A stretch of 64,000 nt of DNA from an uncultured virus (IMG/VR IMGVR_UViG_3300029915_000022) (Duplodnaviria > Heunggongvirae > Uroviricota > Caudoviricetes): the IMG/VR virus record IMGVR_UViG_3300029915_000022; one strand, written 5' to 3'. The notes beneath the pieces were generated by a model. It saw only the letters and a program-made list of their open reading frames with translations, did no database searches and was not told where the DNA came from. Shown here piece by piece: positions 8,530 to 45,670 of the stretch. The position numbers were made by a program, and so were the translations under genes. Numbering within the stretch: the first letter of the stretch is position 1; every line of letters begins with the position of its first letter.

Positions 8530-8859
8530 TGGTGGAGATGCCGGGATTCGAACCCGGGTGCCAGAAAGGATTGATAGTGTTTCTACGCGCGTGTCGCCGA
8601 TGTCCCTCGGCGCTGAGCACTACAGGGCGAACCGGATTTCAGGTCCGGCTGCGCCTCCACCACTCGCGGAACTACGCCGCCGCGAGGCGGATGCTGTCAC
8701 CACCGGTGCTTGCGCCCCGGCGGGTGTTGCGAACTGCATCGAGCGAAACGACGTTGTCGTTGGCTTTTGTTGAGTGAGCAATTTTCTAACCCGGTGATCG
8801 CTCATTTCCGGGGCGCGCTACACTTCTCGTTCTATCCTGGTCGAAACCAGTTCATCCCC
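8530..8859 (-). ncRNA. ssrA: tmRNA (330 nt), tag reading frame 8764-8672: ANDNVVSLDAVRNTRRGASTGGDSIRLAAA*
   Basis: 5' GGGGAUG pairs with 3' CAUCUCC-ACCA with the G3:U Ala identity pair; 5' GGUUUCGAC; T-arm CCGGG-UUCGAAU-CCCGG; pk1 (CCCGG/CCGGG, UGAGCGAU/AUUGCUCA); tag starts ANDN and ends LAAA. Confidence 0.95.
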
Positions 8860-10058: not shown

Positions 10059-10700
10059 CTATTTATCCTTCACGAACTTAAAAGCGGGGTTACCCGATTT
10101 CCAAGTTTTCCCAGGAATAGCAACTCGCCGCCAACCCTGAATTCTCATACTAAATGGAACCAACGGCGCTGGAACGGCCCAATGCTCCCATCGTTGCAAT
10201 TCGGTTTTACCTTGTAGAGTAAGCCCCTTGGCAGAACCTCCGCAATTGAAAATAGATTGACGTTCTCCCTGCGGATTAACGTAGAACTTGTTTGTGGATA
10301 TACTTGTAGCGGTCCATCCAGAGCATAAGTACGTAAAGCCATTATGGTTTTGTCCCTTGTCCGAATAGGTCACCAATACCGGCCATCTAGATCGATCGAT
10401 TAAGAATTTCATTTGTCGCCATAGTGGCCGACTAATATGCTTTAGTTCTCTCTCTTTCTTGGGAATAGCAACCATTCTAGATAACGCTAGTACGGCCTGC
10501 GGTTCTTGCCAACACACCGATTTTGCTGCTCCAGGTGCCGGTGGTTGCCACATAAACCCAGCTACGATTTTCCCGCGTTCGAATACCCCGAATGCGTAAA
10601 CTGCTATTTTACCGGCGGATTTATATCCGTGGTACTTGTAACACAGTTCTTTAACTAATTCCGCATCACATAGTCGTAAATCGTAGGACGGATTTAGCAT
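10059..10700 (-). CDS. Mom-like (GNAT-fold) DNA base-modification protein
   Basis: KYHGY, ALSRMVA and LVTYSDKGQNHNGFTYLCSGW resemble the Mom family S/T-Y-x-D...H-x-G-x-x-Y-x-x-x-x-W motif; gene is noticeably more AT-rich than its neighbours. Confidence 0.7.
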   Translation of the reverse strand: MLNPSYDLRLCDAELVKELCYKYHGYKSAGKIAVYAFGVFERGKIVAGFMWQPPAPGAAKSVCWQEPQAVLALSRMVAIPKKERELKHISRPLWRQMKFLIDRSRWPVLVTYSDKGQNHNGFTYLCSGWTATSISTNKFYVNPQGERQSIFNCGGSAKGLTLQGKTELQRWEHWAVPAPLVPFSMRIQGWRRVAIPGKTWKSGNPAFKFVKDK

Positions 10701-13978: not shown

Positions 13979-14162
13979 CGGTAGCCGCCTCTACCAAAGC
14001 GTAGAGCTCTGGGATTGTGAGTGTAAATCGTTCTTTTCCGTTGACTACCCAAGTGGCTGTTTCGCTCACGTGGCTGACACGTAACTCTCCAACGCGTTCT
14101 TCAGGCTCGCTTGGATCTTGAGAGATCACTGAATCTTTGAATTTGCAACTAACTATGCGCAT
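13971..14162 (-). CDS. Hypothetical protein, first gene of leftward unit
   Basis: AAAGG RBS upstream. Confidence 0.45.
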   Translation of the reverse strand: MRIVSCKFKDSVISQDPSEPEERVGELRVSHVSETATWVVNGKERFTLTIPELYALVEAATDE

Positions 14163-14530
14163 TGTGTCTAACCTTTCGCAGTTGGGCCAAAATGGGACAT
14201 AATTGTAGGGATTTCAAAGGATTTGTAGATCCTTTCAGGATTCTTAGTTGTTTTGGCCCAAATTTTGGATTCGTTCAATAAAGGATCTTTTGATAATGGA
14301 GAAATTTTTATCTATTAGGTATGGTATGTAAAATCTTCTACATTACATTTTGGATTATTTGGGCATGTAAAATCTTCTCTATGAGGTACTAGATTGGATT
14401 CGTTCGTACATTGGGATCCCTCGCGCCCCTACCCCGCCCCTTTGCAATTTCGCATGTAATTACATAGGCTTGCAAACGGGTAAGCCTAAAGGCTTATATT
14501 TGCCGCCCCATGGTAGGTCTGGCAGTAGGA

Positions 14531-15547
14531 AGGGCGTATAGGGTAGGGCAAGCCCCAGGTAGCCCCTAGGGCGTGGCTAGCATAATAGGCGGGTAGGGCT
14601 ATACCCCCGCGCCCCGCAATTGGGCGCAATGGCAGTATATTTACATATAAGTAATGGCATAAGTAATGGGCTAGCCAAATTATAGGCTAGGCAAGTATAT
14701 TAAGCCCATTAGCCCGCTTGGCAGGTAAGGCCAGCGGTATGGCGCTAGTAAGCCATACTTAATGCAAGCCTTACGCGGGGCTAATACTTAATAAAGCTAA
14801 ATAGGCAAGCCCATTACGCCAGTAAAAGCCCTTACCCTAGCAAGGTAAGGCGCGGTAAGTAATAGGCATATGCCAGCAAGCCTTATTACCATAATGCTAA
14901 TACATTACATAAAGCTAAGTAAGCCCCCAGTATGCGGCTTTAGCTATGTATAGCGCATTACTTAATGCTTTGTATTTGCTTAGCAAATAGCTAAGCCCAA
15001 AGTATTGTAAAAGCGCAATGTAAATGCAATGTGTAAGTAATAAGGGCTAAGTATGCTGGCAATGCCTAGGCGGTATTACATACGGCAATGGCCTAATGCT
15101 TAATGCTTAGTAAGTATAATTACTTATTAAGCATTGCGCAATAGGGCGCATATTACAAAAGGCGGCAAAAATGTATAAGCATTATATGGCAGGGCCCACC
15201 AAGCCTAATGCCAAGGGCGCGGCAAAGGTGCAGGCAGGGGCAGCATGCGGCGCAATTATGCGGGCAGGCGACATGTATGCGGACCCCGCGCCCGGCCTGC
15301 GCGGCGTGGCCTGCGCTACCTGCCCCGCGTGCCAGCAAGCGCGCCCCCAGCGCCCAAGTGCTACGCCGTGGCAGGCCATTGCGCCCAAGCCCGTGCAAGC
15401 TGCCCCAGCGCGCCCGGTGCCGTACCGCGTACAAGCCCTTGCCGCGCGGCTTGCCCGCTATGGGCGCTAGCAGGGCCGTGGCAAGGCAACAAGCGCTAGC
15501 AAGCGCGCAGGGCTAAGGTAGCTTAGCCTTGCGCGGTTACTAGGGCT
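14531..15547. other. GA/TC-depleted block at the transcriptional divergence point
   Basis: Manual scan: no GA or TC dinucleotide in 14531-15269; only two GA (15270, 15282) up to 15547. Confidence 0.95.
15171..15470 (+). CDS. Small Cys-containing early protein inside the GA/TC-free block
   Basis: 99 aa, C..IMRAGD...CATCPAC; no Glu; its two Asp codons are the only GA in the block. Confidence 0.6.
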   Translation: MYKHYMAGPTKPNAKGAAKVQAGAACGAIMRAGDMYADPAPGLRGVACATCPACQQARPQRPSATPWQAIAPKPVQAAPARPVPYRVQALAARLARYGR

Positions 15548-15582
15548 TCGCCCCTTGTACCTAGCGAGCAATAATGCTCGCT
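15547..15582 (+). promoter_or_regulatory. Putative sigma70-like promoter with overlapping 8-bp palindrome
   Basis: TTCGCC-17-AATAAT; AGCGAGCA-ATAA-TGCTCGCT at 15563-15582. Confidence 0.4.
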
Positions 15583-15600
15583 CAAGCGGAAGGTATTACC

Positions 15601-16047
15601 ATGTCCTCCAAGAACAACGGCAACAAGGCCCCCAAGATCAACGTCCAGGCGGAAGGCCCCGCGCTCAGCCTCAAGGTGGAAGAGTACAGCGGCGAGGGCG
15701 GCATGAGCCCCGAGCAGGTCGCGGTCATGCAGTCGCTCCCGCAGGCCATCGGCGACGGCAAGGCCGAGGAGCAGAAGAAGGAGCGCCACCCCGACCGCCT
15801 CAAGGCGTCGGAGCTCGCCAGCCCGGTCGCCACGGTCAAGGCCATGTTCACCGCGCTCCACGCGGCCGACCCGACCATGACCCGCAAGGCGATGCTGGAC
15901 GTCGCGATCAGCAAGGGAATCGCCTTCTACACCGCACGCACGCAGTATCAAGTCTGGAAGAAGGGCGGAGCGGACTCGGCGCCGATCAACGTCAAGCCGA
16001 CGCTCGACCTCAACGCCTTCGCGGCTGGACTCGCCAAGTCGGCGTAG
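15601..16047 (+). CDS. TQY-x-x-W family protein, paralog 1 (putative DNA-binding)
   Basis: RKAMLDVAISKGIAFYTARTQYQVW; GGAAGG RBS. Confidence 0.75.
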   Translation: MSSKNNGNKAPKINVQAEGPALSLKVEEYSGEGGMSPEQVAVMQSLPQAIGDGKAEEQKKERHPDRLKASELASPVATVKAMFTALHAADPTMTRKAMLDVAISKGIAFYTARTQYQVWKKGGADSAPINVKPTLDLNAFAAGLAKSA

Positions 16048-16058
16048 TAAGTAGATCC

Positions 16059-16114
16059 TCAAGGCAGCTACTGCAGATCATGTTCAATGGTCTGCAGTGT
16101 CGGCACTGAGGCCG
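16059..16114 (+). repeat. Structured intergenic element, copy A
   Basis: TCAAGGCAGCT + 11-bp hairpin + GT + CGGC-ACTGAG-GCCG, then GGAGG and ATG 16127. Confidence 0.85.
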
Positions 16115-16126
16115 AATGGAGGTATC

Positions 16127-16288
16127 ATGGAAACGAACAACCGGCAAGCGTACCAAATGCACTTCGAGGAGCTGGTGGATCTCCTCGCCCAAGGAATGAT
16201 GTACACGAGGGACAACACGTACAACGATGGTCAGCAGTGGATGTACTTCGACTCACTCTGGATCGAACTCCTCAGCCGGGGAGGGTAA
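16127..16288 (+). CDS. Hypothetical early protein
   Basis: GGAGG RBS. Confidence 0.55.
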   Translation: METNNRQAYQMHFEELVDLLAQGMMYTRDNTYNDGQQWMYFDSLWIELLSRGG

Positions 16289-16293
16289 GGACG

Positions 16294-16458
16294 ATGGACG
16301 GCTGCGAGTGGCCTCGCACTGAAGACGGGCACATTCTGTGCGAAGAACCCACCGGGTGCCACACCTGTCGGATCAACTTCCCAATCGATTGCGCAGAATG
16401 GGAAGCTCGTTACGAAGACTACGAGCGCTCCAAACTTCCGGAAGGGACCAAGGCATGA
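16294..16458 (+). CDS. Small Cys-rich protein
   Basis: AGGA RBS; C...C..C...C pattern. Confidence 0.45.
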   Translation: MDGCEWPRTEDGHILCEEPTGCHTCRINFPIDCAEWEARYEDYERSKLPEGTKA

Positions 16459-16550
16459 CCACAAGGACCTTCTTCATCTGGCTCGCGGCTGTCTTCATCG
16501 CTGACGTCGCGGCCAGCTTCCTCATCGTTTTCATCATCCTTCACTGGTAG
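16455..16550 (+). CDS. Small membrane peptide
   Basis: ATGA coupling; MTTRTFFIWLAAVFIADVAASFLIVFIILHW. Confidence 0.45.
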   Translation: MTTRTFFIWLAAVFIADVAASFLIVFIILHW

Positions 16551-16553
16551 GCT

Positions 16554-16610
16554 TCATGGCAGCTAATGCCGATCAGCTTCGGTTGGTCGGCATTGACGGC
16601 AATCAAGCCG
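16554..16610 (+). repeat. Structured intergenic element, copy B
   Basis: TCATGGCAGCT + 13-bp hairpin closed by C(TTCG)G + GA + CGGC-AATCAA-GCCG, then GAGGG and ATG 16627. Confidence 0.85.
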
Positions 16611-16626
16611 AGAAGAGGGTAAGACA

Positions 16627-16821
16627 ATGATCTACATCACCTGCCACTTCAAGCACAGCGGGAAGACGAAGGTCTACCGGTTCGACAATCCGCTCGCCGC
16701 GATCATGTTCGCTCAGAGCGCCAGTGCAGTCGGCATCCCGTACGAGATCACGGAGGTCGATCAGAATCTGCCTGACGTCGGCCCCGCGATGCAGCTCACC
16801 TCTAACCAGCACATGGAGTAG
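16627..16821 (+). CDS. Hypothetical early protein
   Basis: RBS and ORF after element B. Confidence 0.55.
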   Translation: MIYITCHFKHSGKTKVYRFDNPLAAIMFAQSASAVGIPYEITEVDQNLPDVGPAMQLTSNQHME

Positions 16822-16824
16822 ATC

Positions 16825-17295
16825 ATGTCAACCGTGATTCAGCAACTTGCCGCGATCGTTACTGCTCGCCTCTTTTGTCTCGACAAGATGAACGCCGCTG
16901 CCGTATCTCCCAGCAATCCTAGCACCGCAGAAACCGCCCGCGACTTCTCGCACTGTCAGGAAATGGCGGAGAGGCACGCCGATACCATAGCAGATATTGA
17001 GCGGCGTTATTTGCCGCACGGTAGCGGTATCGACTGCGGAACCAAGGTGGACCTAGTAAAGAGCAGCGGAAACAAGCTAGTTCTCAACTTCGGCTTTCAT
17101 CACATGGATCGGTCCGGGTATTATTGCGGTTGGAGTGACAATACCGTCACGATCCGTCCTCACCTTCAGTTTCTCTTCACTCTCGACTTCAAGACGAGCG
17201 GTCAAGACCAGAACAGCAAGCGATCGCGCGATTCCCGCGACTATTACTACAATGTTTTCCACTTTTCGCTTTGCAAAATCTGGCAGAAAGAATAA
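16825..17295 (+). CDS. Hypothetical protein
   Basis: GGAG RBS; LPHGSGIDCG...FHHMD..GYY.GW. Confidence 0.6.
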   Translation: MSTVIQQLAAIVTARLFCLDKMNAAAVSPSNPSTAETARDFSHCQEMAERHADTIADIERRYLPHGSGIDCGTKVDLVKSSGNKLVLNFGFHHMDRSGYYCGWSDNTVTIRPHLQFLFTLDFKTSGQDQNSKRSRDSRDYYYNVFHFSLCKIWQKE

Positions 17296-17376
17296 AAGGA
17301 GATCCTGCTCGGGCTTCCGTACAGATCAACGTCCGGAAGCCTCATGCAGTACCTACCCCGAAGAAGGAGTCACCAC

Positions 17377-17964
17377 ATGTCATTCCCGAATACGTTCAAA
17401 GAGTTCATCGCAGAAGTCAAGGAAGACGCTCGCCCCGATCAACATCCGGCATTGGATGTGATGGTTGGTATGTTCGAGTCGTACGCGATGTGCAAGAACC
17501 AGGCGACGCTGAACCTGGTCTTGGGCATGGAGGGCGAGCCTAACCAGATCAGCCTCAACCAGATCGAAGTTGTCTATCGCAATCTCGCCCTCAGCCTCGG
17601 CGACGACGGAACGGTCTACAAGGCTGCGATCGTCTCGTTCATCGCGTCCATCGTGACGAACGCTGCCTTCGACGAGTATGTTCAGTGGGTCGAGATCAAC
17701 GTCCACCGGAAGTTACTCGCAAAGGGCGACAATCGGACGACGGAACAGCTCATTCGCTGGTGGTACTCGTATTCCGATGCCGAGATGATGATCGAAGATC
17801 GGGATGGCGGTACCATCGCGTTTATGATCCAAGATGGAGTCGAACCCAAGACCATCCAATCGATCGTTGAATATTGGAACGATCTGGAAATGGACGATGC
17901 TCTGGACAACGCGCAGCTCGAAGCTTTCCGCAATGGCATCAAGGAGTTCTACGGTGTAGAGTAG
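17377..17964 (+). CDS. Hypothetical acidic protein
   Basis: AGGAG RBS before MSFPNT. Confidence 0.55.
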   Translation: MSFPNTFKEFIAEVKEDARPDQHPALDVMVGMFESYAMCKNQATLNLVLGMEGEPNQISLNQIEVVYRNLALSLGDDGTVYKAAIVSFIASIVTNAAFDEYVQWVEINVHRKLLAKGDNRTTEQLIRWWYSYSDAEMMIEDRDGGTIAFMIQDGVEPKTIQSIVEYWNDLEMDDALDNAQLEAFRNGIKEFYGVE

Positions 17965-17966
17965 CT

Positions 17967-18024
17967 TCAAGGCAGCTTGAGATCATGTTCTGTACGAACA
18001 TGATCTCAGTCGGCACTGATGCCG
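17967..18024 (+). repeat. Structured intergenic element, copy C
   Basis: TCAAGGCAGCT + 13-bp perfect hairpin + GT + CGGC-ACTGAT-GCCG, then AGGAG and ATG 18043. Confidence 0.85.
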
Positions 18025-18042
18025 CTTAGCAAGGAGAAGATC

Positions 18043-18240
18043 ATGGCAACGATCACCTTCACCAACGGATGGCCGCCCTTTGAGATCCCAGACGAGGATC
18101 TCCGGCGCCTGCTTCAGATCGGGATTAACAGCCTCGAGAGGTACAAGTCTGCGGAGGGAACCATGTTCCCGAAGTCGGAGAAGAACACCCTCGCAATGGC
18201 ACACCACGTCATCTACAACCTGATGAACAAACCGAGGTAG
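18043..18240 (+). CDS. Hypothetical early protein
   Basis: AGGAG RBS. Confidence 0.55.
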   Translation: MATITFTNGWPPFEIPDEDLRRLLQIGINSLERYKSAEGTMFPKSEKNTLAMAHHVIYNLMNKPR

Positions 18241-18243
18241 ATC

Positions 18244-18603
18244 ATGCTCCGGAAGAATAAGCACCATCCGACTCGCCCTCGGGAGAAGGCTTACTACAAG
18301 GGATCCAAACTCTACTCTAGATCAGGATCAAATCGCCAGCTCGCCCAAGAGCTGGCGCAGCACCGTCTTCCTCCGCCCATCTATCTCTCGATCACATTCC
18401 GGAATAGATGGACGATCCCACGCGACGAGTATCTAGCGGTGGAGTGGCTCAAGGCTCGCCCTATGCTCGGCAAGCCTCGATTCACTATTGGATCCCGCCT
18501 ACAGGATCAAATAAAGGATCCTATTGTCCACAGGCATGTGCCGACGTGCGATGATACCCTTGAAGAGAAGCTGCGGGCGAGTCTTATTCCCAAGGCTTCT
18601 TAG
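18244..18603 (+). CDS. Hypothetical basic protein
   Basis: GAGG RBS. Confidence 0.45.
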   Translation: MLRKNKHHPTRPREKAYYKGSKLYSRSGSNRQLAQELAQHRLPPPIYLSITFRNRWTIPRDEYLAVEWLKARPMLGKPRFTIGSRLQDQIKDPIVHRHVPTCDDTLEEKLRASLIPKAS

Positions 18604-19345
18604 GCGTTCCCGGGATCGGAGGTGGGATCGGGAGGGGTTCAGGGATCTGATAGGTTATGATTGCGTGCGGAAAAGGACGGATGGGATCAGTAGAATTCGC
18701 GGGGTGGGATCCAAGCGCCCTATTTCCTCCCTCATTTCCCGATTCCCTCACTTCTGTAAACTCCGCATCCAATTCGTCCTCTAACCCCTCTAGCATCTCC
18801 ACCCTCCCATTTGCCTCACGCCGAATCATTCTTACTCTAGCGGCATTCCTTTCGCCACGATCTTTACTCTCCATTTCAAACTCGTGCCTGACCTTTTCGT
18901 CAAAGTACACTAAGAAGTTGGGTAAGCTAACGTCCACCGGCGCCTTCAGCACACATCCACTATAAGGCGTCAGCGCCCCGTACATCCTCACCTCCCACGG
19001 GAGCCTATTCTTTCTGTAGAACAGAATGGGCTCCCGTACGAGTGCCATCGTATTTCCTCCCTTCTCCCCTCTCACGATTCCCATCGCGGCTGCTTTAGTC
19101 TGCGCCCACCATACATCTACAATCGAAGCACCCTCTTGCTCTCTGCGCTTCACCTCTGCGGCCATCCAATCCAGGCCCACAATATCACTTCCATTGCCAT
19201 TCCCTACGCGAGCCCGCGACTGCTCCAAATTCCTCTCCAATCGCACCTGCCTGTATCCATACTTCAGGCATACCGCGTCAATTCGCGCTTGCAGGATTGC
19301 AATCATCTCGTACTCGCCGCCCATTCCCTTCGACTTCGGTGTCAT
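18584..19345 (-). CDS. PD-(D/E)XK nuclease, Holliday junction resolvase-like
   Basis: KSKG..GEYE, RNLEQ, GSDI...AAEVKRRE, WWAQ, PILFYRKNR..W. Confidence 0.75.
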   Translation of the reverse strand: MTPKSKGMGGEYEMIAILQARIDAVCLKYGYRQVRLERNLEQSRARVGNGNGSDIVGLDWMAAEVKRREQEGASIVDVWWAQTKAAAMGIVRGEKGGNTMALVREPILFYRKNRLPWEVRMYGALTPYSGCVLKAPVDVSLPNFLVYFDEKVRHEFEMESKDRGERNAARVRMIRREANGRVEMLEGLEDELDAEFTEVRESGNEGGNRALGSHPANSTDPIRPFPHAIITYQIPEPLPIPPPIPGTPKKPWE

Positions 19346-19698
19346 TCATTCTCCTTGCGCTATGCGCATTCAACCAAGTCCCAATCAAATCCTAATTGCA
19401 TCTAACTTCTACTTGAATAACGGCTGTTGGAGGGTAGGAACCGCTCATTAACAGCCAAATCACCCTTATACGCTTGAATTTCTACCTATCTTCCTTACTA
19501 CTGTTAATTGTTAATAATGATAATAAAGTATGGTAATTATTATTCACCTAATCTACGCGCGTAAGATTCACGTAGAATTTCAGCCGTAGCGGAGTAAATT
19601 TTGTACGCTTTTTATATGCACGCATTAAATTTGCATACTTTAGCGGATTTACAGGCTTTTTCCCATTATCCCGACATTAACCAGCATTAACAGCTGCA

Positions 19699-20124
19699 TT
19701 ATGATTGCACTCTTTTGCGGAAACTCAGCAATCCAATCTTAATCCTCAAATCAATGCCGCCTTTCCTGGTCAGCAAGATTTTAATCTTTCCGGTCGCAAA
19801 GTCGCCAATCACATATCCCGGGCCGATTTGCGTAATTACTCCGGTATACTGCACCTTCCCATCTATCAGAGCCTCTAGTGTATCGCCAATGTTTACGTGC
19901 CCTTCAATGGTCGATACTTTCATTCGAACTTTGGCGTTTGCAGGGATTCGGCCGGTCGCAGTTAGGACTGTTATCCGGTTGCCGCTTTGGAATTCAGAGT
20001 CCATAACACGATTCGATATGTCGACGACAGTGCCTTGTTCCCAATCGTCAAAAGACGTTCTATAGCGCTCTACCTTATCCCCTACTTTCGGACGGGCTTG
20101 ACTAGGTTGGCGATGGCGGGGCAT
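19699..20124 (-). CDS. Hypothetical protein
   Basis: 141-aa ORF, AGGGAG RBS. Confidence 0.45.
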   Translation of the reverse strand: MPRHRQPSQARPKVGDKVERYRTSFDDWEQGTVVDISNRVMDSEFQSGNRITVLTATGRIPANAKVRMKVSTIEGHVNIGDTLEALIDGKVQYTGVITQIGPGYVIGDFATGKIKILLTRKGGIDLRIKIGLLSFRKRVQS

Positions 20125-20270
20125 ACGATCTCCCTGTGGTTATAGTCTTGCAGGGTACGATAGATCCTGGGCGGTTGGCAAGAAGAATCTTGGATTATGT
20201 ATCTACTTTTCCCTTGCATTGTGCGGGGTACGGGAGTAGACTTGTTTTGGGCTTTTACCGGAGGTATTCC

Positions 20271-20465
20271 ATGGCGGATGCAAAGAAGAAGTCGCGGCAT
20301 GTCGTTGTTGTTTTCATGGTCGACGCCGAGTATACGGATGAGCAGTTCGGGGAGGATCTCGCCGTCGCCATCCATGAACAAGGAATCGACGAGCTGAATA
20401 GCCTTACGAACAAGGTCTGCAGTTCGCAGGTGGTCGGCGAGTACCTCGTTCCTGATGAAGAGTAG
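20271..20465 (+). CDS. Hypothetical acidic protein
   Basis: GGAGG RBS before MADAKKK. Confidence 0.55.
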   Translation: MADAKKKSRHVVVVFMVDAEYTDEQFGEDLAVAIHEQGIDELNSLTNKVCSSQVVGEYLVPDEE

Positions 20466-20536
20466 GACTTAATTCCTGCGCGGTGGGATGTCAGAGATCC
20501 CATAGCGGAGCAATTTGGCTCCTATCTGGAGGTTCT

Positions 20537-20911
20537 ATGCGTACTGCACTCGAGAAGTTACTCTTGGCCGCTCTACTGGAAAACGATTCCGAGGGATTCA
20601 AGATCCCTCCGAATGAACCCGCGAAGGAAAATGGGAACGAACCTTGGAAGGCGATCAGAAAGGTCGGAAACAAGGTTTTGATTCGTACGGTGACGCATTA
20701 CTACACCGGCGAGATCACGGCGGTGCTTGGAGATGCCCTACAGTTGAAGGACGCTGCATGGATCCCAGACACGGGAAGGTTTAGCGAAGCCCTCAAAACG
20801 GGAAAGTTCGCCGAAGTTGAGCCCTACGTGGGACTCGTTGAAGTCTTCACGGGAGCGACCGTCGAAGTTTGCCAATGGCCGCATCCTCTTCCGGTTGAGA
20901 AGAAGCCATGA
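20537..20911 (+). CDS. Conserved phage protein with SH3/Sm-like beta barrel
   Basis: VGNKVLIRTVTHYYTG...LKDAAWIPDTGRF...EVEP; GGAGG RBS. Confidence 0.65.
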   Translation: MRTALEKLLLAALLENDSEGFKIPPNEPAKENGNEPWKAIRKVGNKVLIRTVTHYYTGEITAVLGDALQLKDAAWIPDTGRFSEALKTGKFAEVEPYVGLVEVFTGATVEVCQWPHPLPVEKKP

Positions 20912-21051
20912 CCGCGTCCATTGGCAGAACTGGCCTTGAGGGGTCGATGTCGACGTCGACGTCGGAGTCGGGGTCGAGGTCGTGGTCGACGTCGGGGTCG
21001 GAGTCGGGGTCGAGGTCGGGGTCGTGGTCGGATACGGGGAGCGCGCCGTGA
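20908..21051 (+). CDS. Ser-X repeat peptide 1 (47 aa)
   Basis: ATGA overlap with upstream stop; MTASIGRTGLEGSMSTSTSESGSRSWSTSGSESGSRSGSWSDTGSAP; not in ORF track. Confidence 0.6.
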   Translation: MTASIGRTGLEGSMSTSTSESGSRSWSTSGSESGSRSGSWSDTGSAP

Positions 21052-21306
21052 CGGCGGCGGTGCTCAAGGTGGGCCTCGACAATGCCTGGTCGAGATCGGA
21101 GTCGGGGTCGGGGTCGTGGTCGGGTTCGAGGTCGTGGTCGTGGTCGGGGTCGGGGTCGTGGTCGGGGTCGTGGTCGGGGTCGAGGTCGTGGTCGACGTCG
21201 GGGTCGGAGTCGGGGTCGAGGTCCAAGTCGGGGTCGAAGTCGAGGTCGTTGTCGTGGTCGTGGTCGGGATCGAGGTCGTGGTCGTGGTTGGGTTCGAGGT
21301 CGGGGT
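20944..21306 (+). repeat. Degenerate hexamer tandem repeat (TCG-NNG)n in two tracts
   Basis: Units TCGGGG, TCGAGG, TCGTGG, TCGACG, TCGGAG. Confidence 0.9.
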
Positions 21307-21314
21307 TGACATAG
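21048..21314 (+). CDS. Ser-X repeat peptide 2 (88 aa)
   Basis: GTGA overlap, GGGGAG RBS; (M)TAAVLKVGLDNAWSRSESGSGSWSGSRSWSWS... Confidence 0.65.
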   Translation: MTAAVLKVGLDNAWSRSESGSGSWSGSRSWSWSGSGSWSGSWSGSRSWSTSGSESGSRSKSGSKSRSLSWSWSGSRSWSWLGSRSGLT

Positions 21315-21387
21315 CGTAGTTAGGGCTTCTATTCGGAGTAGAAGCCTTATAGTGCGCAATGGAGCGTACTGTTGAAGGGAGTAAAAA

Positions 21388-21602
21388 TGGACATCGAAAT
21401 GTTTGGCCAGATTCCAGAAGCATGGGATCTTATCATGGAAGCCAGTGAGCCTGATGTGCTTACCGCTGAAATCTCTACGGAGATTTGGATGGCGCATACG
21501 GAGCAGGGTTGGGATCTTAAGCCGATGCCGCATGAAGTGGACGTTCGGTGCCCTGGACCGATGCACTGCGAGTTCTGGCAGCTGTGTGAAACCAATGCGT
21601 GA
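21388..21602 (+). CDS. Hypothetical protein
   Basis: GGGAG RBS. Confidence 0.45.
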
Positions 21603-21795
21603 CTTACTCCCTGGTCCGAAACAGCGGATGGCGATTTATGCTCAGCATGAGGCGATGGGTGCCCACATGGAGGCAATTTGGTGGAGGGACATTCGATCCC
21701 TCATCACCCGCGATCTGGAGGCTGCCGAAGCGTTTCAAATTCAGTCGGCTGGATTCTACAAGATTGCACGCCAGCTGATGGGAATTGAAGAATGA
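21595..21795 (+). CDS. Hypothetical protein
   Basis: Coupled ORF. Confidence 0.4.
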   Translation: MRDLLPGPKQRMAIYAQHEAMGAHMEAIWWRDIRSLITRDLEAAEAFQIQSAGFYKIARQLMGIEE

Positions 21796-22247
21796 CTCCC
21801 GTCTTGCAAGCGATCAAAGTGACATTCGGCTATTCGCCGAATGGGAATCCTCGCTACATCGCCAAGTGCAATGCGAGGAGGATCTCAGTGCCAACGGCTG
21901 ACTGCGAAGGTCGTAGTCAGGACGAACATGCACACTTTGCCGCTCAGAAGTTAGCTCGGATGCTGGAGTGGTCCGACCAACTTCTGGGAGGTTCAATCGA
22001 TAAGGGAGCTCATTGGGTCTTTGTCCAGATCCCAAAGCCGACTTCCGTTGAATGGCGGCGGACCGGGCGCACGATCTTGACTGACATCTCGAGAAGCTGG
22101 CTACTGTGCAATGGCGATCGCGAAATCCTTTATGTGTCCCGTGCGGAAGGACCGAACGGGTACGCGATTACCCCGTCCAAGGCGGACGATCTCGTGCAGT
22201 TAATCACTAACCTGTTGAATGGAAAGGCGGTCGACGATGAAGCTTAA
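21792..22247 (+). CDS. Hypothetical protein
   Basis: ATGA coupling. Confidence 0.5.
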   Translation: MTPVLQAIKVTFGYSPNGNPRYIAKCNARRISVPTADCEGRSQDEHAHFAAQKLARMLEWSDQLLGGSIDKGAHWVFVQIPKPTSVEWRRTGRTILTDISRSWLLCNGDREILYVSRAEGPNGYAITPSKADDLVQLITNLLNGKAVDDEA

Positions 22248-22419
22248 TTCTGACGGCGGACTTGTGTGCGATGACGTGATGGGCGGCGACGAGGAAAACT
22301 GTGAAGGAGAGCAGTTCGCCATTGACCTCGCCATCGATGGCAAGGTCAAAGTGCATTGCCTTGATTGTGGAAAGGAGTTCGATATCGCCGTCGTCACGCA
22401 GACCTTCGCCGATCAGTAA
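22237..22419 (+). CDS. Small zinc-ribbon-like protein
   Basis: C...C...CLDCG. Confidence 0.45.
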   Translation: MKLNSDGGLVCDDVMGGDEENCEGEQFAIDLAIDGKVKVHCLDCGKEFDIAVVTQTFADQ

Positions 22420-22501
22420 TGGCCTGCCCGATAGATCCTACCAGCTAGGATCTTGAGGGGAGTTCACTACATAGGGGGGTGCTCCAGAAGAGGGTGTTAC
22501 A

Positions 22502-23143
22502 ATGGGCGAAATCGATTATTCAGCTCCTGAGAAGATTGTTTTGATCGGCCGTTCGCAGGCCGGTTGGCACGCGGCATACACCTGGGGAGGCGGTGGTCAA
22601 ACCGGGTCTTCAAGCGGTGGTTCGCTCGAAGGATACGTGAAGGATCGCCCTGCTGGCGACGAGAATTCTCGTGGTGGCAGAACTGCGGAGGGAGCTTTCG
22701 TTTACGACGGGAAGAATCTCTCCTACGAAGATGCCGCCAAGATTGCGATTTGTGGACCGATTCCGTATCCCCTTGTGCCGCTCGGCATGGCGGAATATGA
22801 GCACCACTATCCGCCAATCTACAAACACGCGTCGGAGTGCAAGATCGGGAGCATGACGTACGTCGCGGTCGACGTCTACCTCGATTATTATCGGAGGGCT
22901 GGAGCCCGTATCGGGCAGGTTCACAACGAGCGCGTCTATTGGGACGACGAACGCGTTCCGGATGCGGTGATCGAGGCCGTCTGGAAGCTTGTCCATAACC
23001 CGGAAGAATTGAAGGCGAGTTGCCAGAAATTTCAGTCAGCTCTTCGTCTTCTCGGGTACGATTCGCTCGGCGGGCACTACTATCTGAATCCGTGGTGTGG
23101 GATGTACGTCGGAATCGAGAAGGACGGATACACTCACTCCTGA
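22502..23143 (+). CDS. Hypothetical protein
   Basis: GAGGG RBS; ends GMYVGIEKDGYTHS. Confidence 0.55.
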   Translation: MGEIDYSAPEKIVLIGRSQAGWHAAYTWGGGGQTGSSSGGSLEGYVKDRPAGDENSRGGRTAEGAFVYDGKNLSYEDAAKIAICGPIPYPLVPLGMAEYEHHYPPIYKHASECKIGSMTYVAVDVYLDYYRRAGARIGQVHNERVYWDDERVPDAVIEAVWKLVHNPEELKASCQKFQSALRLLGYDSLGGHYYLNPWCGMYVGIEKDGYTHS

Positions 23144-23223
23144 ATTCAGTTCTAAAAATCTCTAGACATGGCATACCGCCTTCGCTAGACTGTATCCAGT
23201 AACCCAACCAAAGAGGGATTCAA

Positions 23224-23427
23224 ATGTATACCGACAAGAACTACCAATCGAAGGCTGAGTTGAAGCGAGACGTTGCTTCTGGCAAGAAGGTGACGATCTA
23301 TGCCCCTGGACTCGGGACGCCTGTCGTCAACGGGAAGGAGACCGTCTGCGGGCCACATTTCCCCGCTCCTCATCGGTGGTACGCCGAGGTTATCATGAAG
23401 GACGGCGTGATCGAGAAGGTGAAGTGA
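23224..23427 (+). CDS. Conserved small phage protein
   Basis: NYQSKAELK...GPHFPAPHRWYA. Confidence 0.6.
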   Translation: MYTDKNYQSKAELKRDVASGKKVTIYAPGLGTPVVNGKETVCGPHFPAPHRWYAEVIMKDGVIEKVK

Positions 23428-23681
23428 TGTACCTTCCGACAATGGACATGGTGAAGGCTTTCCTCGGTACTCCGCTCACGGAAAACCACACCTCCAATGG
23501 CGAGCGTATTCTTCCCGACCATCGGCTCGTGAGCTGGCGACTTCCGGTGACGCCCGAAAGCAAGAAGTTCGCCGTCGAGAAGCTTGTGGACATGCGGAAG
23601 AGCTGGCCTTACACCAACGTCCAAGTTCACGAATCGGTGTTCTTGAACCACATTGACGTTGTCTTCCGAATTCGTCTCTAG
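23427..23681 (+). CDS. Hypothetical protein
   Basis: TGATG coupling. Confidence 0.5.
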   Translation: MYLPTMDMVKAFLGTPLTENHTSNGERILPDHRLVSWRLPVTPESKKFAVEKLVDMRKSWPYTNVQVHESVFLNHIDVVFRIRL

Positions 23682-23719
23682 CCTTGCACATTCTAGTCTA
23701 TGGCCTCTCCAAGTAAAGC

Positions 23720-23748
23720 TTGACGGGGCCATAACTAGAGGGTACAAT
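23720..23748 (+). promoter_or_regulatory. sigma70-like promoter
   Basis: TTGACG-17-TACAAT. Confidence 0.8.
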
Positions 23749-23796
23749 GCCCTTACAACCTGGACATTCCGTCTGGGTCGAGAAACGGAGTTACAA

Positions 23797-24345
23797 ATGG
23801 GTTCCAAGAATCGGAAGGCAGCAATCGCAGCGGCGGCCGAGAAGCGCACCAAGACCGTCGAGAAGTACGTCGGCAAGGCTCCGGAAACTCCCCTGGAGAA
23901 GACTTCGGCGATCATCATGGACGAGGTCGACAAGGACATGGACAAGGAGATCGCCGCTCGCGCGGAAGCCAAGGCGAAGCAGGAAGCCGACGGCGACAAG
24001 ATCCTCGCCGACATGAACAAGGAGGCGGAGAAGTCGGCCCCTGCCCTCACGGCATCGCAGCCGACGGCTTCTGCGGCTCCTGCACCTTCGGTGACGACGG
24101 GCGGTAAGCTGGCGAATCGCCTCCGCTCGTCGGCAATCTCCCTCCCGACGAAGATGGTCTGGGAAATCGCGGACATCATGAAGAAGGCGAACCCGAACGT
24201 CCGCCGCAAGGACGTCATCGCCGAGTGCATCAAGCAGGGAATCGCCACCTACACCGCGATGACGCAGTACCAGCGGTGGTTCACGGCGCACAAGGCCGAC
24301 GCGGTCGCGGTCGCTCCGAAGCAGGCCACCGCTTCCAACGGTTAG
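23797..24345 (+). CDS. TQY-x-x-W family protein, paralog 2
   Basis: PTKMVWEIAD...RRKDVIAECIKQGIATYTAMTQYQRW. Confidence 0.75.
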   Translation: MGSKNRKAAIAAAAEKRTKTVEKYVGKAPETPLEKTSAIIMDEVDKDMDKEIAARAEAKAKQEADGDKILADMNKEAEKSAPALTASQPTASAAPAPSVTTGGKLANRLRSSAISLPTKMVWEIADIMKKANPNVRRKDVIAECIKQGIATYTAMTQYQRWFTAHKADAVAVAPKQATASNG

Positions 24346-24473
24346 ACGCTTTCCCTAGGATCTAGGTGCGGATGGACGCTTAAATGTCCCCTAGATGCTT
24401 GGCTGGTAGTTTGAGGCCAAGATGCGGATCAGAAGCCTAGATCCTAGCGGAGGTAGTCTAACCTGGAGTACAA

Positions 24474-24695
24474 ATGATTCTATTCAACCAGAAGGCGTCG
24501 GAGAATAAAGAGCTCTTAGCTCTTGAGTTCGCGGAAAGATACACGCATCGGCAACTCGTGGAGGATCACGAGGCTCTTGTCGGCTTGGCTATGTCCGCGA
24601 ATTCCTGCAACCGGCCACTCCTCCAAGACATGGCGGTCTTGTTTACTGCCATCGAAATGCAGCACAGGGGATTAGGAAGGATCTACAACGCCTAG
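24474..24695 (+). CDS. Hypothetical protein
   Basis: GGAG RBS. Confidence 0.5.
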   Translation: MILFNQKASENKELLALEFAERYTHRQLVEDHEALVGLAMSANSCNRPLLQDMAVLFTAIEMQHRGLGRIYNA

Positions 24696-24696
24696 C

Positions 24697-26973
24697 CTAC
24701 TTAATCTTCCAGGCGTTCCCGAGCACGAATGCTCTCCCCTTGGCGTTGAACCGTGTCATAATCTGTACCGAGGGGATCTCCGCTAGCATGTTCGCATCCA
24801 TAAGGTCTTGGATAGCGCTCTTCAAAGCCGCAGTGCTCCCTCGCTTGTCCTTCCGGAAGGCGGCGAGCCCTGCGGTTTTCCGTAGAAGGTAGCAGTACGG
24901 AATCGCCTTGTCTTTGAACATTGGAAATTCGACACCGTACTTCTCGATTTTCTCAAACGGATTCTTGAAGTAGAATTCGATTACATGCTTGAGGTCCGAC
25001 CCGAGCTTGGAGTCGCCTGCTCCAACGTCGCCAGACTTAAACCTGTCGACCATCGTCATTACGTCTTTGCAGACGAATTTGATGGCCCAATTCGCAAGCT
25101 CGGCTGTAACCACAGGCTGGTGCGGATTAACGCCTACCGCAAGAAGCGCAGCGAGTTTGAGCGCTTTAAGGTGCGCGCGATTCCAGACCTGTCGTTCGAC
25201 ATCGTTTCCGTGAGTTCCGTTGATTTCGCTATCACAAGATTCGTCGAATTTGTCGAGTATAGACTGAGCCGCGGAATCAGTAGCGACTCCCATGCAACTT
25301 CGATTATTGGAAGTCGTGAGTGCAACGGCGACCATGTCCCCAAACCGGCGGGTAAGTTCCTCTCCTGGGGGGTGCCCCGCGTCTTTGTTCCGTGGTGGAC
25401 GATGTCCATCATATTGAATAATACTGAATCGAGGAATAAGTCCGTCGGCGATGTGCGAGGCGTCGAGACCTTCGAAGAAAGTCTCGGGGGTCGACTCACC
25501 CAAGATGGTAACATTGGGGCTTTGGATGACCTGTGTGTTTTTCTCGACGTCGGAGTAGACGGAACTTTGGAGCATTTTGTTCCAACCCGATTTGCTCCAG
25601 AGGTCGAGTAATACTTTTCGGAGCATGACTTGTGCCGAAATCGCATTTGGGTCACATAGTTGCTGGAGTGTAAGACCGAACTCGCCGAGTACCGACACAA
25701 AGCAGGGCTTCTTATCCAGAATCTTGATGAGAGCTTGCCCTGACGCAAACGCTGATGGACCGACGAACTGGTCCACCATCGGTATCTGTGGCCGAACTGC
25801 CGCTATCATCGCGTCAATGCCAGTAGCGACGCCTTCTTTGCCCGCTCCAGTTCGAGCGATAAGGATAAGGTACTGATTCAGACCAACACCGGAGATGTTG
25901 TAGGATCTACCAACGACTCCAGCGCACAAGGCCAGCGCTCCAGCAAGAGCAATATCCGGCACCGGGCGAACTGCTGACTGATAGAAGTAAAGAGCGATTT
26001 CGCCGACCAGACCGGGCGGAAGTTCAATTCCCGGCAAGGCTGGAGGCGCTTTGGCAGGCGGTAGCAGGGTAGTAACCGCTAAGGGCGCGGGGCTTTGCAA
26101 GGCTATTACGGCCGTTTGCGGGGCCACCGGCACGGGCGTTGACGGTTGCGGGGCCAATAGGGCATTGAAATCAATGTGAGTAGGCTGCTTTGCCCGGATC
26201 TTCTCGAGCGCGTAATCGAGGTACTTGTCGTTTCGAATAGCCTTTTCGCGTTGCCCGAGCTTGGAGTATCTGAACAGACGCCGAACCTGCTCGTTACTCC
26301 TTGAGTAAAAGCAGTACATGGAGAGAAGAGCGAAATCCGCTTCTGATTGGGAGCCGTACCCCATCTCTTGCCATAGGCCGTTGCATAGGTCGCGGAACTT
26401 TTCCGCGTTGACGGCACTGTCTGCCATCTCGAACACTTCCCGATCCTCAAGAAGCTCGTCCTCCTCCTGCAATGGCGGAGTGGGAGGGCGCATCTCCGTG
26501 ACTAATGTCAGAAGGAGTTCGCTGTAGTCTGCGACCGGAGCCTGACGAACCACGTCGCCCGTGCAGATCATATAGCGACCGGAGCTGTAGACTTCGACGT
26601 GGTCCTTGTTTACGCCAGACGGGATTGATCCCTTGACGACAATGTGGTAACCACGTCCAGAGACGGATCGCTCTGTGTAGCTGGCGAATGCGTCTAGGAT
26701 CTTTTTATGCCGTTCCAGATCCTCTTGCGTGGCTGGATTGGTGAGCTTATCGTCGAGATCGATTACGGCGAACGGATCCGACTCCGAAAATGCAAATCCG
26801 ATGAACTTGTATCCGGCATGGCAAGCTTCTTCAAAAGTCCCCCAAGTGGTCGGATCTGTAGAAGAAGCAAGGTTGCCGGTTCTTGGATTGCGAGGAGCTT
26901 TGTCCTCGTAGCTCGCACAAACAACCCACTGCGGCAAAGCACGGAGCTCTGCCGGAATATTGTGCCATTGCAC
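24697..26973 (-). CDS. Primase (prim-pol type) fused to P-loop helicase-like domain
   Basis: IPAELRALPQWV, IDLDD, ERSVSGRGYHI, EVYSSGRY; Pro/Ala linker; ARTGAGKE Walker A-like. Confidence 0.85.
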   Translation of the reverse strand: MQWHNIPAELRALPQWVVCASYEDKAPRNPRTGNLASSTDPTTWGTFEEACHAGYKFIGFAFSESDPFAVIDLDDKLTNPATQEDLERHKKILDAFASYTERSVSGRGYHIVVKGSIPSGVNKDHVEVYSSGRYMICTGDVVRQAPVADYSELLLTLVTEMRPPTPPLQEEDELLEDREVFEMADSAVNAEKFRDLCNGLWQEMGYGSQSEADFALLSMYCFYSRSNEQVRRLFRYSKLGQREKAIRNDKYLDYALEKIRAKQPTHIDFNALLAPQPSTPVPVAPQTAVIALQSPAPLAVTTLLPPAKAPPALPGIELPPGLVGEIALYFYQSAVRPVPDIALAGALALCAGVVGRSYNISGVGLNQYLILIARTGAGKEGVATGIDAMIAAVRPQIPMVDQFVGPSAFASGQALIKILDKKPCFVSVLGEFGLTLQQLCDPNAISAQVMLRKVLLDLWSKSGWNKMLQSSVYSDVEKNTQVIQSPNVTILGESTPETFFEGLDASHIADGLIPRFSIIQYDGHRPPRNKDAGHPPGEELTRRFGDMVAVALTTSNNRSCMGVATDSAAQSILDKFDESCDSEINGTHGNDVERQVWNRAHLKALKLAALLAVGVNPHQPVVTAELANWAIKFVCKDVMTMVDRFKSGDVGAGDSKLGSDLKHVIEFYFKNPFEKIEKYGVEFPMFKDKAIPYCYLLRKTAGLAAFRKDKRGSTAALKSAIQDLMDANMLAEIPSVQIMTRFNAKGRAFVLGNAWKIK

Positions 26974-37513: not shown

Positions 37514-37536
37514 GATCCAAATGTCGCAATTTGGGG

Positions 37537-37564
37537 TTGCAGAAAAGCCAACAACGGTTATATT
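37537..37564 (+). promoter_or_regulatory. Putative sigma70-like promoter bracketed by a GGTTGCA/TGCAACC inverted repeat
   Basis: TTGCAG-16-TATATT. Confidence 0.5.
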
Positions 37565-37622
37565 GCAACCTACTGAATTACCAACCGGGCCGCGAGCCCA
37601 ACGAAACACGAAAGGATCTACC

Positions 37623-38030
37623 ATGTCGAAGACCCATGAAGGAACTCCCGTCGCTGCTGCTCCCGTCCAGACCGGCCCGTCGGAGGCCGAGGCGAAGAAG
37701 GCGGCGAAGAAGGCCGAGAAGGAGGCCGCGAAGGCGGCGAAGGAGGCCGCGAAGGAAGCCTCGAAGGCGCAGAAGATCGAGGCCAACGGCGTCGTCCGCC
37801 CCAAGTCGGGGACGAAGACGGGCCGCGTCTGGGAGATCAGCGATGAGCTGTCGGCGGCGCTGAAGCGTCCGGTCGAGCGCAAGCTCGTGATGGAGGCCGC
37901 CGCCAAGGAGAGCATCAACGAGGCGACCTGCGCGACTCAGTACGGTCGTTGGCGGAAGTACCACGGCCTGAAGGGGCAGCTCGCAACTCCTCCCGCAGCC
38001 GCGCCGGACGTCACGCCCGCTCCGGCGTAG
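37623..38030 (+). CDS. TQY-x-x-W family protein, paralog 5, with Ala/Lys-rich segment
   Basis: AKKAAKKAEKEAAKAAKEAAK; RVWEISD...RKLVM......INEATCATQYGRWRK. Confidence 0.75.
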   Translation: MSKTHEGTPVAAAPVQTGPSEAEAKKAAKKAEKEAAKAAKEAAKEASKAQKIEANGVVRPKSGTKTGRVWEISDELSAALKRPVERKLVMEAAAKESINEATCATQYGRWRKYHGLKGQLATPPAAAPDVTPAPA

Positions 38031-43624: not shown

Positions 43625-45670
43625 GTGCGCTCCGATTCGATTGGGATGTTCTGGACCGACGTTCAGCGCAAAAAGGGCGTGCTGAATCGCCTGCGACCTC
43701 TTGCACCTATTCCGGACACTGGCTGGACCCCTCCCAGATCCTTCCCTAATCTTAGGTCTGCAAAGATCCTAGGTATCGACATTGAATCATACGATCCCGA
43801 AATTGAGGATCGTGGACCAGGATGGGGTCGTGGTAGGCCAGACAAGTTCCATATGTCCGGGATGTCCATTTCTACCCAAGACGGATACAAGTGGTATTTC
43901 CCGATTCGACATACAGTCGAGAAGGAGTATAACCTCAATCCAGAGCAGGTCATCGCTTGGGCAAAGGACACCCTCCGCCACGACGACCAGACAAAAGTCG
44001 GCGCGAACCTTATCTATGATATCGGTGGTCTTCGGGAAGAAGGGATCCATGTCCGTGGTCGACTTCTCGACGTCCAAATGGCAGAAGCTCTTCTCGACGA
44101 GCGGTCGCTCGTCCGTCTCGATAAGCTTGGCGAGAAGTACCTTGGAAGGGGGAAGCTTCAAACTACGCTTTTCAGATGGTCGTCTGACTCCTACGGTGGT
44201 GCACCGACTCACGAGAAGCAGGCCGAAAACATCTGGAGGAGCCCTCCTCGACTAGTCGGCCCGTACGCAGAAGAAGATGCACTCATGCCTTTCGAGCTTC
44301 TTCCAATCATGTGGGAGAAGCTGGCATCCGAAGGTCTCACTGACCTATTTCTAATGGAGTGCGATCTAATTCGGCTTGTTGTGGACATGCGCTTTAAGGG
44401 CGTGGCAGTTGACGTAGAACATGCGGTCCGGCTAAGGGATTCGCTTACGCAGCGAATTACAGAGAACCAGTTAAAGCTCAATGAGCTTGCCGGGTTCAAA
44501 GTTAACGTCAACGCTTCTGATTCTATCGCGAAGCTTTTCGACAAGTTTAATCTAAAGTATCCGCGGACAGAACCAACTAAGAATAAGCCAACCGGAAATC
44601 CCAGCTTCCGAAAAGAGTGGCTCAAGAGTCATCCGCACCCGATGGCTCAAATGGTCATGGGGGTACGGAGACTTTCCAAACTCCGAGGGACCTTCGTTGA
44701 AGGGTATATCATTAACGGGAATACGAATGGGATCCTTCACGGATCCTTTCACCCTCTTCGGACAGACCGGAATGGTACAATCATTGGCCGGTTTTCGAGC
44801 TCGCATCCAAATCTACAGAATCTTCCTATCCGGGATAAAGAGATCCTTCCGGACGGGTCTGTCGAGAAGCTCGGTAAAGAAATCCGATCAATCTTTAAGC
44901 CGCACGATGGCCACAAGGAATGGGTCAAGTTCGACCTTTCCCAGATCCAATATCGCGGAATGGTTCATTGCGCGACTGGACCGGGTGCAGAAGCCGCTCG
45001 CAACCGGTATCGCAACGATCCTCTGACCGACTTCCATAAGTGGGCCGTTGAAGTCGTGCAGGCTGTCTTCGCGAAGAAGGTTGAGCGCGACGCCGTTAAA
45101 GAGCTGAATTTCGGAACGCTCTTTGGGATGGGCAAAGCAAAGTTACTCGCGCGTCTCGGTGGAGCACTCAAAGAAGCTAAAGCATTCATGGAGGCGTACC
45201 ATGCCGGAGTCCCCTTTGTTAAACCGACTATCAAAGAGATTTCGGCTTATGCCGAACAAAACGGGTTCATCGTTAGTCCTCTTGGTCGCCGTGCTCGTTT
45301 TGATCTGTGGGAGCCTAATCGCAAACGGGGTGAGGACGATGGGGAAGAAACTCCTGCTCTTCCGCTAGACCTTGCACTCCGTAAGTACACCGACATCCGT
45401 AGAGCGTATCTTCATAAGGCACTAAATCGGTATCTCCAGATGCTCGAAGCCGATTGCATGAAGAAAGCCATGTGGCAGCTCTACACCGGCGGAGTATGGG
45501 ATCAACTCGGCGTCCCAGTTCTACAGGTTCACGATGAACTCGACTTCTCCCATGCTGGCGGATTTGAACGCGAACTTGAGGAGACTAAACGCGCCATGGA
45601 GACCGCGGTTAAACTCACCGTCCCAATCCTTTGCGAAAAGAAAATTGCGGCCCATTGGGGCGCGTGCTAA
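43625..45670 (+). CDS. polA: Family A DNA polymerase with 3'-5' exonuclease domain
   Basis: DIES, N..YD, YAEED exonuclease motifs; GRFSSSHPNLQN; DLSQIQYR (motif A), K.LNFG..FG (motif B), VHDE (motif C). Confidence 0.95.
   Translation: MRSDSIGMFWTDVQRKKGVLNRLRPLAPIPDTGWTPPRSFPNLRSAKILGIDIESYDPEIEDRGPGWGRGRPDKFHMSGMSISTQDGYKWYFPIRHTVEKEYNLNPEQVIAWAKDTLRHDDQTKVGANLIYDIGGLREEGIHVRGRLLDVQMAEALLDERSLVRLDKLGEKYLGRGKLQTTLFRWSSDSYGGAPTHEKQAENIWRSPPRLVGPYAEEDALMPFELLPIMWEKLASEGLTDLFLMECDLIRLVVDMRFKGVAVDVEHAVRLRDSLTQRITENQLKLNELAGFKVNVNASDSIAKLFDKFNLKYPRTEPTKNKPTGNPSFRKEWLKSHPHPMAQMVMGVRRLSKLRGTFVEGYIINGNTNGILHGSFHPLRTDRNGTIIGRFSSSHPNLQNLPIRDKEILPDGSVEKLGKEIRSIFKPHDGHKEWVKFDLSQIQYRGMVHCATGPGAEAARNRYRNDPLTDFHKWAVEVVQAVFAKKVERDAVKELNFGTLFGMGKAKLLARLGGALKEAKAFMEAYHAGVPFVKPTIKEISAYAEQNGFIVSPLGRRARFDLWEPNRKRGEDDGEETPALPLDLALRKYTDIRRAYLHKALNRYLQMLEADCMKKAMWQLYTGGVWDQLGVPVLQVHDELDFSHAGGFERELEETKRAMETAVKLTVPILCEKKIAAHWGAC

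Follow-up and report, generated by a model that had tools for sequence, protein, structure and literature searches.

The early mRNA of phage T7 is processed at five positions by RNase III (PMC4858673). In a different setting, the 5' UTR of S. aureus cspA, cleavage by RNase III replaces a long hairpin of the leader by a shorter one at the 5' end and renders the mRNA more stable; cspA is a single cellular leader whose translation is activated by the cut (PMC3386247). The PeSLs (promoter/stem-loop modules) of T4-like phages are repeated modules of a stem-loop and a Shine-Dalgarno sequence among small variable genes (PMC4122927). Here, we describe three copies (A, B and C) of an intergenic element of an uncultured phage that resembles each of these systems in part: as in T7, hairpins are repeated between genes ahead of ribosome sites; as in cspA, a cut, here a predicted one, would turn a long leader hairpin into a 5'-terminal hairpin; and as in the PeSLs, stem-loop and Shine-Dalgarno modules recur among small variable genes. 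Judging from folding and scoring models, we consider it fairly likely that A-C act as a processing signal for the host RNase III and at the same time as a 5' stabilizer, probably as a lineage-specific variant of the T7-type signals.

Three copies of an intergenic element in an uncultured phage

The window, that is the whole stretch of 64,000 nucleotides that was analyzed, comprises most of the genome of a tailed phage (myovirus) with tail sheath, baseplate, terminase and DNA polymerase genes, and it also carries a deazaguanine DNA-modification cluster and a tmRNA. The identical stretch occurs on a 65,243-bp metagenome contig, and all 24 of the 24 sequencing runs listed are peat metagenomes, none of them an RNA run, with 12 marked as possible sources of the DNA. 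The tag predicted for the tmRNA (8530-8859, - strand) is unusually long, at 30 residues, and a gene at 10059-10700 (- strand) encodes a Mom-like DNA modification protein (phrog_1384) besides the deazaguanine pathway.

A scan of the 64-kb window for the pattern TCAWGGCAGCT-N24-36-GWCGGCA.T.A.GCCG returned three matches, all on the + strand, at 16059, 16554 and 17967, and no fourth copy; the three copies claimed in an earlier note, which had been made from the sequence alone, are real. The 5' motif is exact in A-C, which account for three of five window matches at up to one mismatch, and the 3' motif has eight window matches at up to two mismatches, three of them in A-C. When the pattern was relaxed and both strands were scanned, the three copies were joined by a single poor match at 44609. 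Copy A (16057-16114) consists of an outer arm (16057-16069), an inner stem-loop (16070-16098) and a small hexaloop hairpin (16101-16114), followed by GGAGG (16118-16122) and an ATG at 16127. In copy B (16550-16610), the inner stem-loop (16565-16594) is capped by C(UUCG)G and the small hairpin (16597-16610) precedes an ATG at 16627, and in copy C (17964-18024) the corresponding features are located at 17978-18008, 18011-18024 and 18043. The start codons follow GCCG at distances of 12, 16 and 18 nt in A, B and C, in agreement with the spacing given earlier; the remark that each copy begins a few bases after an upstream TAG does not apply to A, where the gene stop lies 11 nt upstream.

A-C reside among small rightward ORFs. 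Eight ORFs located between 15574 and 18603 were scanned, and no PHROG or Pfam family was assigned to any of them. Directly upstream of A, a gene at 15601-16047 encodes a protein of 148 residues which is matched by eight other proteins and for which the ESM Atlas returned unnamed clusters only, below 0.9. The ORFs between A and B are located at 16127-16288, 16294-16458 (both scanned and without family) and 16455-16550, those between B and C at 16627-16821, 16825-17295 and 17377-17964, and those after C at 18043-18240 and 18244-18603, where a convergent gene ends at 18584. The notion of an RNA-level element that divides this region into cassettes is supported, while 'early', as the region had been called, is inferred from the size and position of the genes. 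The gene at 15601-16047 shares a related stretch with 23797-24345, and the latter and 37521-38030 match phrog_7864; the three are possibly paralogs, and their relatives occur in pairs in a syntenic phage locus (L233).

The inner stems comprise 12, 13 and 13 bp in A, B and C, respectively, plus an invariant closing U-G. At stem positions 1-12 all 36 of 36 cells are canonical and both sides change at nine of the twelve positions, which bears out the variable hairpin with maintained pairing, including the G-U pairs in A and B and the tetraloop of B. Folding z-scores are -4.2, -4.1 and -3.3 (A, B, C). Moreover, A, B and C are inverted repeats without gaps, with arms of 25-27 nt, and in the uncut message each is predicted to form an irregular hairpin of 25-27 bp. 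In this hairpin, pairing between the 5' and 3' motifs runs through a symmetric core that contains G-A, A-G and C-U/A mismatches. The core, GGCAGCU / GWCGGCA, is near-invariant around the variable stem, and two positions of the outer helix covary (C-G/U-A and A-C/U-A). The apparent covariation is that of three paralogs within one genome, as no homolog was found in other genomes, and the stems of A and B are visibly related. A mimic of a type I-F CRISPR repeat was rejected since the complementary arm is absent.

The small hairpin, CGGC-N6-GCCG, has 4-5 bp and a 6-nt loop and is located just ahead of the ribosome binding site. It is excluded by the long fold; nevertheless, its 3' arm is invariant. 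Because the long fold masks a small hairpin whose 3' arm is maintained, the element appears to have two states. The long fold is the minimum-energy fold of B and C, so that the two-hairpin structure drawn in the earlier note is recovered as such for A only, where the outcome depends on the flanks included; in one sequence context, uncut copy A already forms the small hairpin (0.84).

The strong hairpins of A-C begin 2-11 nt past stop codons, as would be expected of intercistronic hairpins that are never cut and serve as exonuclease barriers, terminators lacking a U-tract or pause sites. We regard this reading as quite unlikely, since a barrier would require neither the invariant core nor a masked second hairpin; for a terminator, the U-tract that should follow the hairpin of A-C is absent on both strands. 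It is highly improbable that the copies represent a DNA-level promoter or recombination module like the T4 PeSLs, to which they had been compared. The layout of stem-loop, Shine-Dalgarno sequence and start codon among variable genes is shared with these modules (PMC4122927); however, A-C differ from PeSLs in having neither a -35/-10 promoter above chance nor a terminator signature. Sigma-70-like sites at 14000-20500 number 8 versus 6.4 expected (the best with 9/12), the folds of A and B are more stable by about 5 kcal/mol on the + strand (that of C is not), and the reads of 4 of the 24 runs, with low and patchy cover, contain no deletion joints.

A putative RNase III signature in the inner stem and the predicted cut

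The inner stems were scored by the six in-vitro box positions of Pertzev and Nicholson (PMC1540722), with a numbering that was derived from the text and checked on T7 DNA, and by an in-vivo pair matrix (PMC6212723, Table S4 with its thresholds of -25.5 and -33.8). Both describe E. coli RNase III, and the enzyme of the phage's host may differ. Of 14 registers, the best, common to A, B and C, has as its first pair the one just inside the invariant U-G and holds 4, 5 and 3 of the six boxes with 11 of 11 pairs canonical in every copy; a continuous helix of at least 11 bp between cut and loop is present in all three. Under the same scoring, five T7 early intergenic hairpins, which we take to be R0.3, R0.5, R1, R1.1 and R1.3, hold 4, 4, 3, 5 and 5 boxes. 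Within the proximal box, the preferred pairs occur in three of three copies at +1 and +3 (A-U/U-A) and +4 (G-C), and in one of three at +2 (A-U). Within the distal box, U-G at +9 is present in two of three copies (U-A in C) and U-A at +10 in none, while two of the five T7 hairpins lack the former and two of five the latter. This U-G pair, which copy C does not have, is called stringent in the in-vitro study (PMC1540722). A second register 9 bp further out holds 10 of 18 boxes but only 7-8 of 11 pairs and was rejected.

Shuffling the pairs within the stems of the three copies gave P 0.006, and P 0.016 when flips were allowed, values that are overstated because the stems of A and B are related; pairwise tests were weaker (P 0.07 for B+C and 0.52 for A+C). 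Among the window's helices with a length of 11 bp or more (n=32, the reverse strand of C being dropped), A-C outrank the 26 others both by boxes (P 0.0045) and by the matrix (P 0.0055), and the box ranking reaches P 0.0004 when two relatives, D and E (see below), are added. Of 242 control helices from 26 other phage loci, 11 hold four boxes and none holds five.

The matrix also ranks this register first by total score in A (-27.5) and C (-27.7), and in B it comes second (-27.0 vs -26.8). The inner-half scores of A, B and C (-8.7, -8.2 and -8.5) surpass the T7 values in all five cases (-8.8 to -12.5); 19, 3 and 14 of the 242 controls, respectively, are as good. Since the outer half is poor, the totals of -27.0 to -27.7 fall between the two thresholds, below -25.5 and above -33.8; the T7 totals are penalized by the ungapped scoring used. 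The outward half-site holds none of the six boxes, and a second good half-site, as expected of double-cut targets, is absent, an indication that cutting is weak or limited to a single cut. A single set of boxes can suffice for RNase III (PMC1540722).

With a 2-nt 3' overhang, the predicted cut in the 3' strand, placed from the stem alone, is at GW^CGGC, which in all three copies is precisely where the small hairpin begins. The cuts, as predicted from the inferred register, are at 16069/16070 and 16100/16101 in A, 16564/16565 and 16596/16597 in B, and 17977/17978 and 18010/18011 in C. In folding predictions for A-C, the probability of the small hairpin rises from 0.02-0.18 in the uncut message to 0.93-1.0 after the cut. 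As the predicted cut coincides with the first base of this hairpin, processing would leave an mRNA whose 5' end is paired and resistant to decay. 5' monophosphate ends speed attack by RNases E and J, and a 5' hairpin can stabilize an mRNA (PMC3997798); on S. aureus cspA, an end of this kind is produced by RNase III (PMC3386247). The cut is not predicted to make the ribosome site of A-C more accessible; translational activation by this route was rejected for that reason, and stabilization is proposed instead.

In the mechanism that we favor, the polycistronic message would fold the long hairpin, and RNase III would recognize its inner 11 bp, with a cut at GW^CGGC in the 3' strand and perhaps another at GCU^W in the 5' strand. 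The downstream mRNA would then begin with the base-paired C of CGGC-N6-GCCG, its 5' monophosphate shielded from RNase E or J, and after a single cut the long hairpin would remain on the upstream mRNA as a 3' barrier. The outcome would be separate, stable cassette messages, as in the early region of T7. Among the options raised in the earlier note, a processing or stabilizing leader fits best; its author had overlooked the competing long hairpin, the RNase III signature within the stem taken as variable, and four further leaders with the small hairpin.

Further hexaloop leaders and a zone depleted of GA/TC

The closing pairs and loop of A-C define the form GC-[A(A/C)U-NNN]-GC. Hairpins of this form with 4 bp or more have 12 occurrences in the window, seven of them on the + strand at 15.1-21.4 kb, and all seven precede a Shine-Dalgarno-like word and an ATG. 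Beyond A-C there are four, versus 0.26 expected (P 1.5e-4). A descriptor of helix plus hexaloop, written after relative E was known, has eight window matches against a mean of 1.15 in 40 shuffles.

The four relatives, all on the + strand, fit the RNase III model unevenly. Relative D (15090-15150) has a 16-bp stem closed by U-G and the hexaloop at 15140-15145, and it is free of GA/TC; it holds five of six boxes and the best in-vivo score (-23.2), with the same register first as in A and C, and is picked up by the covariance model at E 0.096. After the predicted cut, just 2 bp of its small hairpin would remain. Relative E (21315-21369) has a 13-bp stem directly after a stop (21314) and a 6-bp hairpin with the hexaloop at 21358-21363, ahead of an ATG at 21387; a predicted cut at 21351/21352 would keep a paired 5' end, and four of six in-vitro boxes are present, but the in-vivo score is poor (104 of 242 controls are as good). 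Relative Z (15481-15583) consists of a long irregular hairpin and a hairpin of 7-8 bp with the hexaloop at 15570-15575, ahead of the ATG at 15601, and has weak RNase III boxes (at best 3/6 with 8/11 pairs). Relative F (20479-20522), also with weak boxes, is a short stem followed by a 5-bp hairpin with the hexaloop at 20512-20517, GGAGG and an ATG at 20537. The core of A-C is absent from D, E, F and Z; thus, its identity in A-C may reflect recent duplication. Immediately before relative E ends a low-complexity gene region (20908-21314, + strand) of 6/12/18-nt repeats, similar to a repeat in another phage locus (L245). Intergenic hairpins lacking the hexaloop occur at 17300-17352, 20200-20243, 22420-22495, 23692-23752 and 24340-24465, and the one at 23.7 kb overlaps what is, by eye, a good sigma-70-like TTGACG-17-TACAAT.

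The near-invariant core of A-C, with its conserved mismatches around a variable stem, might alternatively be the catalytic or ligand-binding center of a new self-cleaving ribozyme or riboswitch, an option that had been raised before, and formally the 5' UCA segment could form a pseudoknot with the hexaloop. We consider this very unlikely, given the relatives that do without the core and the lack of any Rfam match to the element at gathering score. Rfam 15 returned the tmRNA as the only such match over the 64 kb, with snoRNA/miRNA noise only (E 6-9) at 15900-18200 and nothing near threshold at 14400-15900 and 20100-24700.

RNase III does not account for the conserved hexaloop, because the distance from loop to cut is not fixed. 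Nor does stability alone require it, as the loops of Z and F are conserved although they never pair with an outer arm. One explanation is a protein-bound translational control leader, in which a phage or host protein binds GC-[A(A/C)U-NNN]-GC and the long helix serves as a folding switch without ever being cut. This would be in line with the recurrence of the hexaloop ahead of start sites, with GC-A-x-U-x-x-x-GC being invariant while the stem letters vary, and with its presence in Z and F in spite of their weak boxes. We nonetheless judge it unlikely: it leaves unexplained why pairs preferred by RNase III lie in the inner stem at a fixed distance from the small hairpin, and no candidate RNA-binding protein was named among the 55 and 41 proteins scanned. 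Binding is compatible with cutting and may add to it. Accommodating both, it might tentatively be speculated, at a low probability, that the elements are processing-activated operators, in which the RNase III cut would unmask the hexaloop at the 5' end and a phage or host protein would bind it, co-regulating and stabilizing the seven messages.

The region around D and Z is unusual in a further respect. A stretch of 1.15 kb (14452-15600) is almost devoid of GA/TC, with 9 occurrences versus about 144-177 expected; its longest GA/TC-free run extends over 741 bp from 14530, whereas the longest runs in the sequences of five other phages measure 58-168 bp. Among the products encoded in the window are QueE, QueC, QueD, GTP cyclohydrolase and a DpdA-type protein resembling a queuine tRNA-ribosyltransferase. 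The DpdA of phage iggy reportedly targets GA, and the same target is given for phage CAjan (PMC7544227). The zone is probably a control region that is kept free of the phage's own base modification. Within it, directly after relative D, lies an ORF of 99 codons (15171-15470, + strand) almost without Asp/Glu, which may not be a gene because its only match is an identical protein. In Shewanella phage S0112, short repeats with GGCAGCGAT are located inside a GA/TC-poor stretch at 21400-22400.

Occurrence in other genomes and relation to known signals

A covariance model built from A and B recovers C at E 9e-9. The same model found nothing better than E 0.19 in 50 phage loci (696,544 bases) and nothing in 35 whole records, a set that held no positive control. 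Exact-pattern scans of IMG/VR gave at least 120 stretches and, among those listed, one with as many as four inner pairs; further such scans gave 81 stretches with at most six and 11 with at most two pairs, and 116 stretches in GTDB genomes had at most four. Searches of phage records by blastn yielded short chance matches only, and protein-based scans of IMG/VR no relative. A metagenome scan identified two loci, both of the same phage, which depart from the window sequence at 2 and 1 positions, none of them within the elements, and the reads of four of the 24 runs, with patchy cover, contain no variant letters. The syntenic relative (L233/G011) carries no A-C element and its intergenic hairpins are low-scoring; it has one GC-[AAUGAA]-GC hairpin before a start site, which may be due to chance, being one of three such matches in 697 kb. 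No description of the motif was found in the openly accessible literature searched, and Rfam was the motif catalogue covered.

RNase III processing signals are an established kind; what would be particular to A-C, according to the folding model, is a 5'-terminal hexaloop hairpin that is first masked and then exposed. Beyond their arrangement, the elements share with T7 a helix of 11 bp whose +4 pair is G-C and whose +3 pair is A-U/U-A, with A-U/U-G frequent at +8/+9, and an irregular region below the predicted cut. In contrast to the asymmetric loop of T7, this region is here a symmetric, ungapped mismatch helix, and the predicted cut would release a 5'-terminal hexaloop hairpin. The word UCAAGG, common to T7 and A-C, occurs in another register and is probably coincidental; an alignment to T7 by this word (register -9) totals only 4 of 18 and was discarded. 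Unlike the cspA leader, the phage element is repeated and operon-internal, with no predicted gain in access to the ribosome site.

The model makes predictions at single-nucleotide resolution, namely 5' ends at 16101, 16597 and 18011, which can be assayed without culturing the phage. If it is true, the element, at about 60 nt, would represent a compact design of natural origin for cutting an operon while shielding the newly made 5' end, and would be useful for synthetic operons. Furthermore, the hexaloop, present in seven copies, may mark a new RNA-protein interaction.
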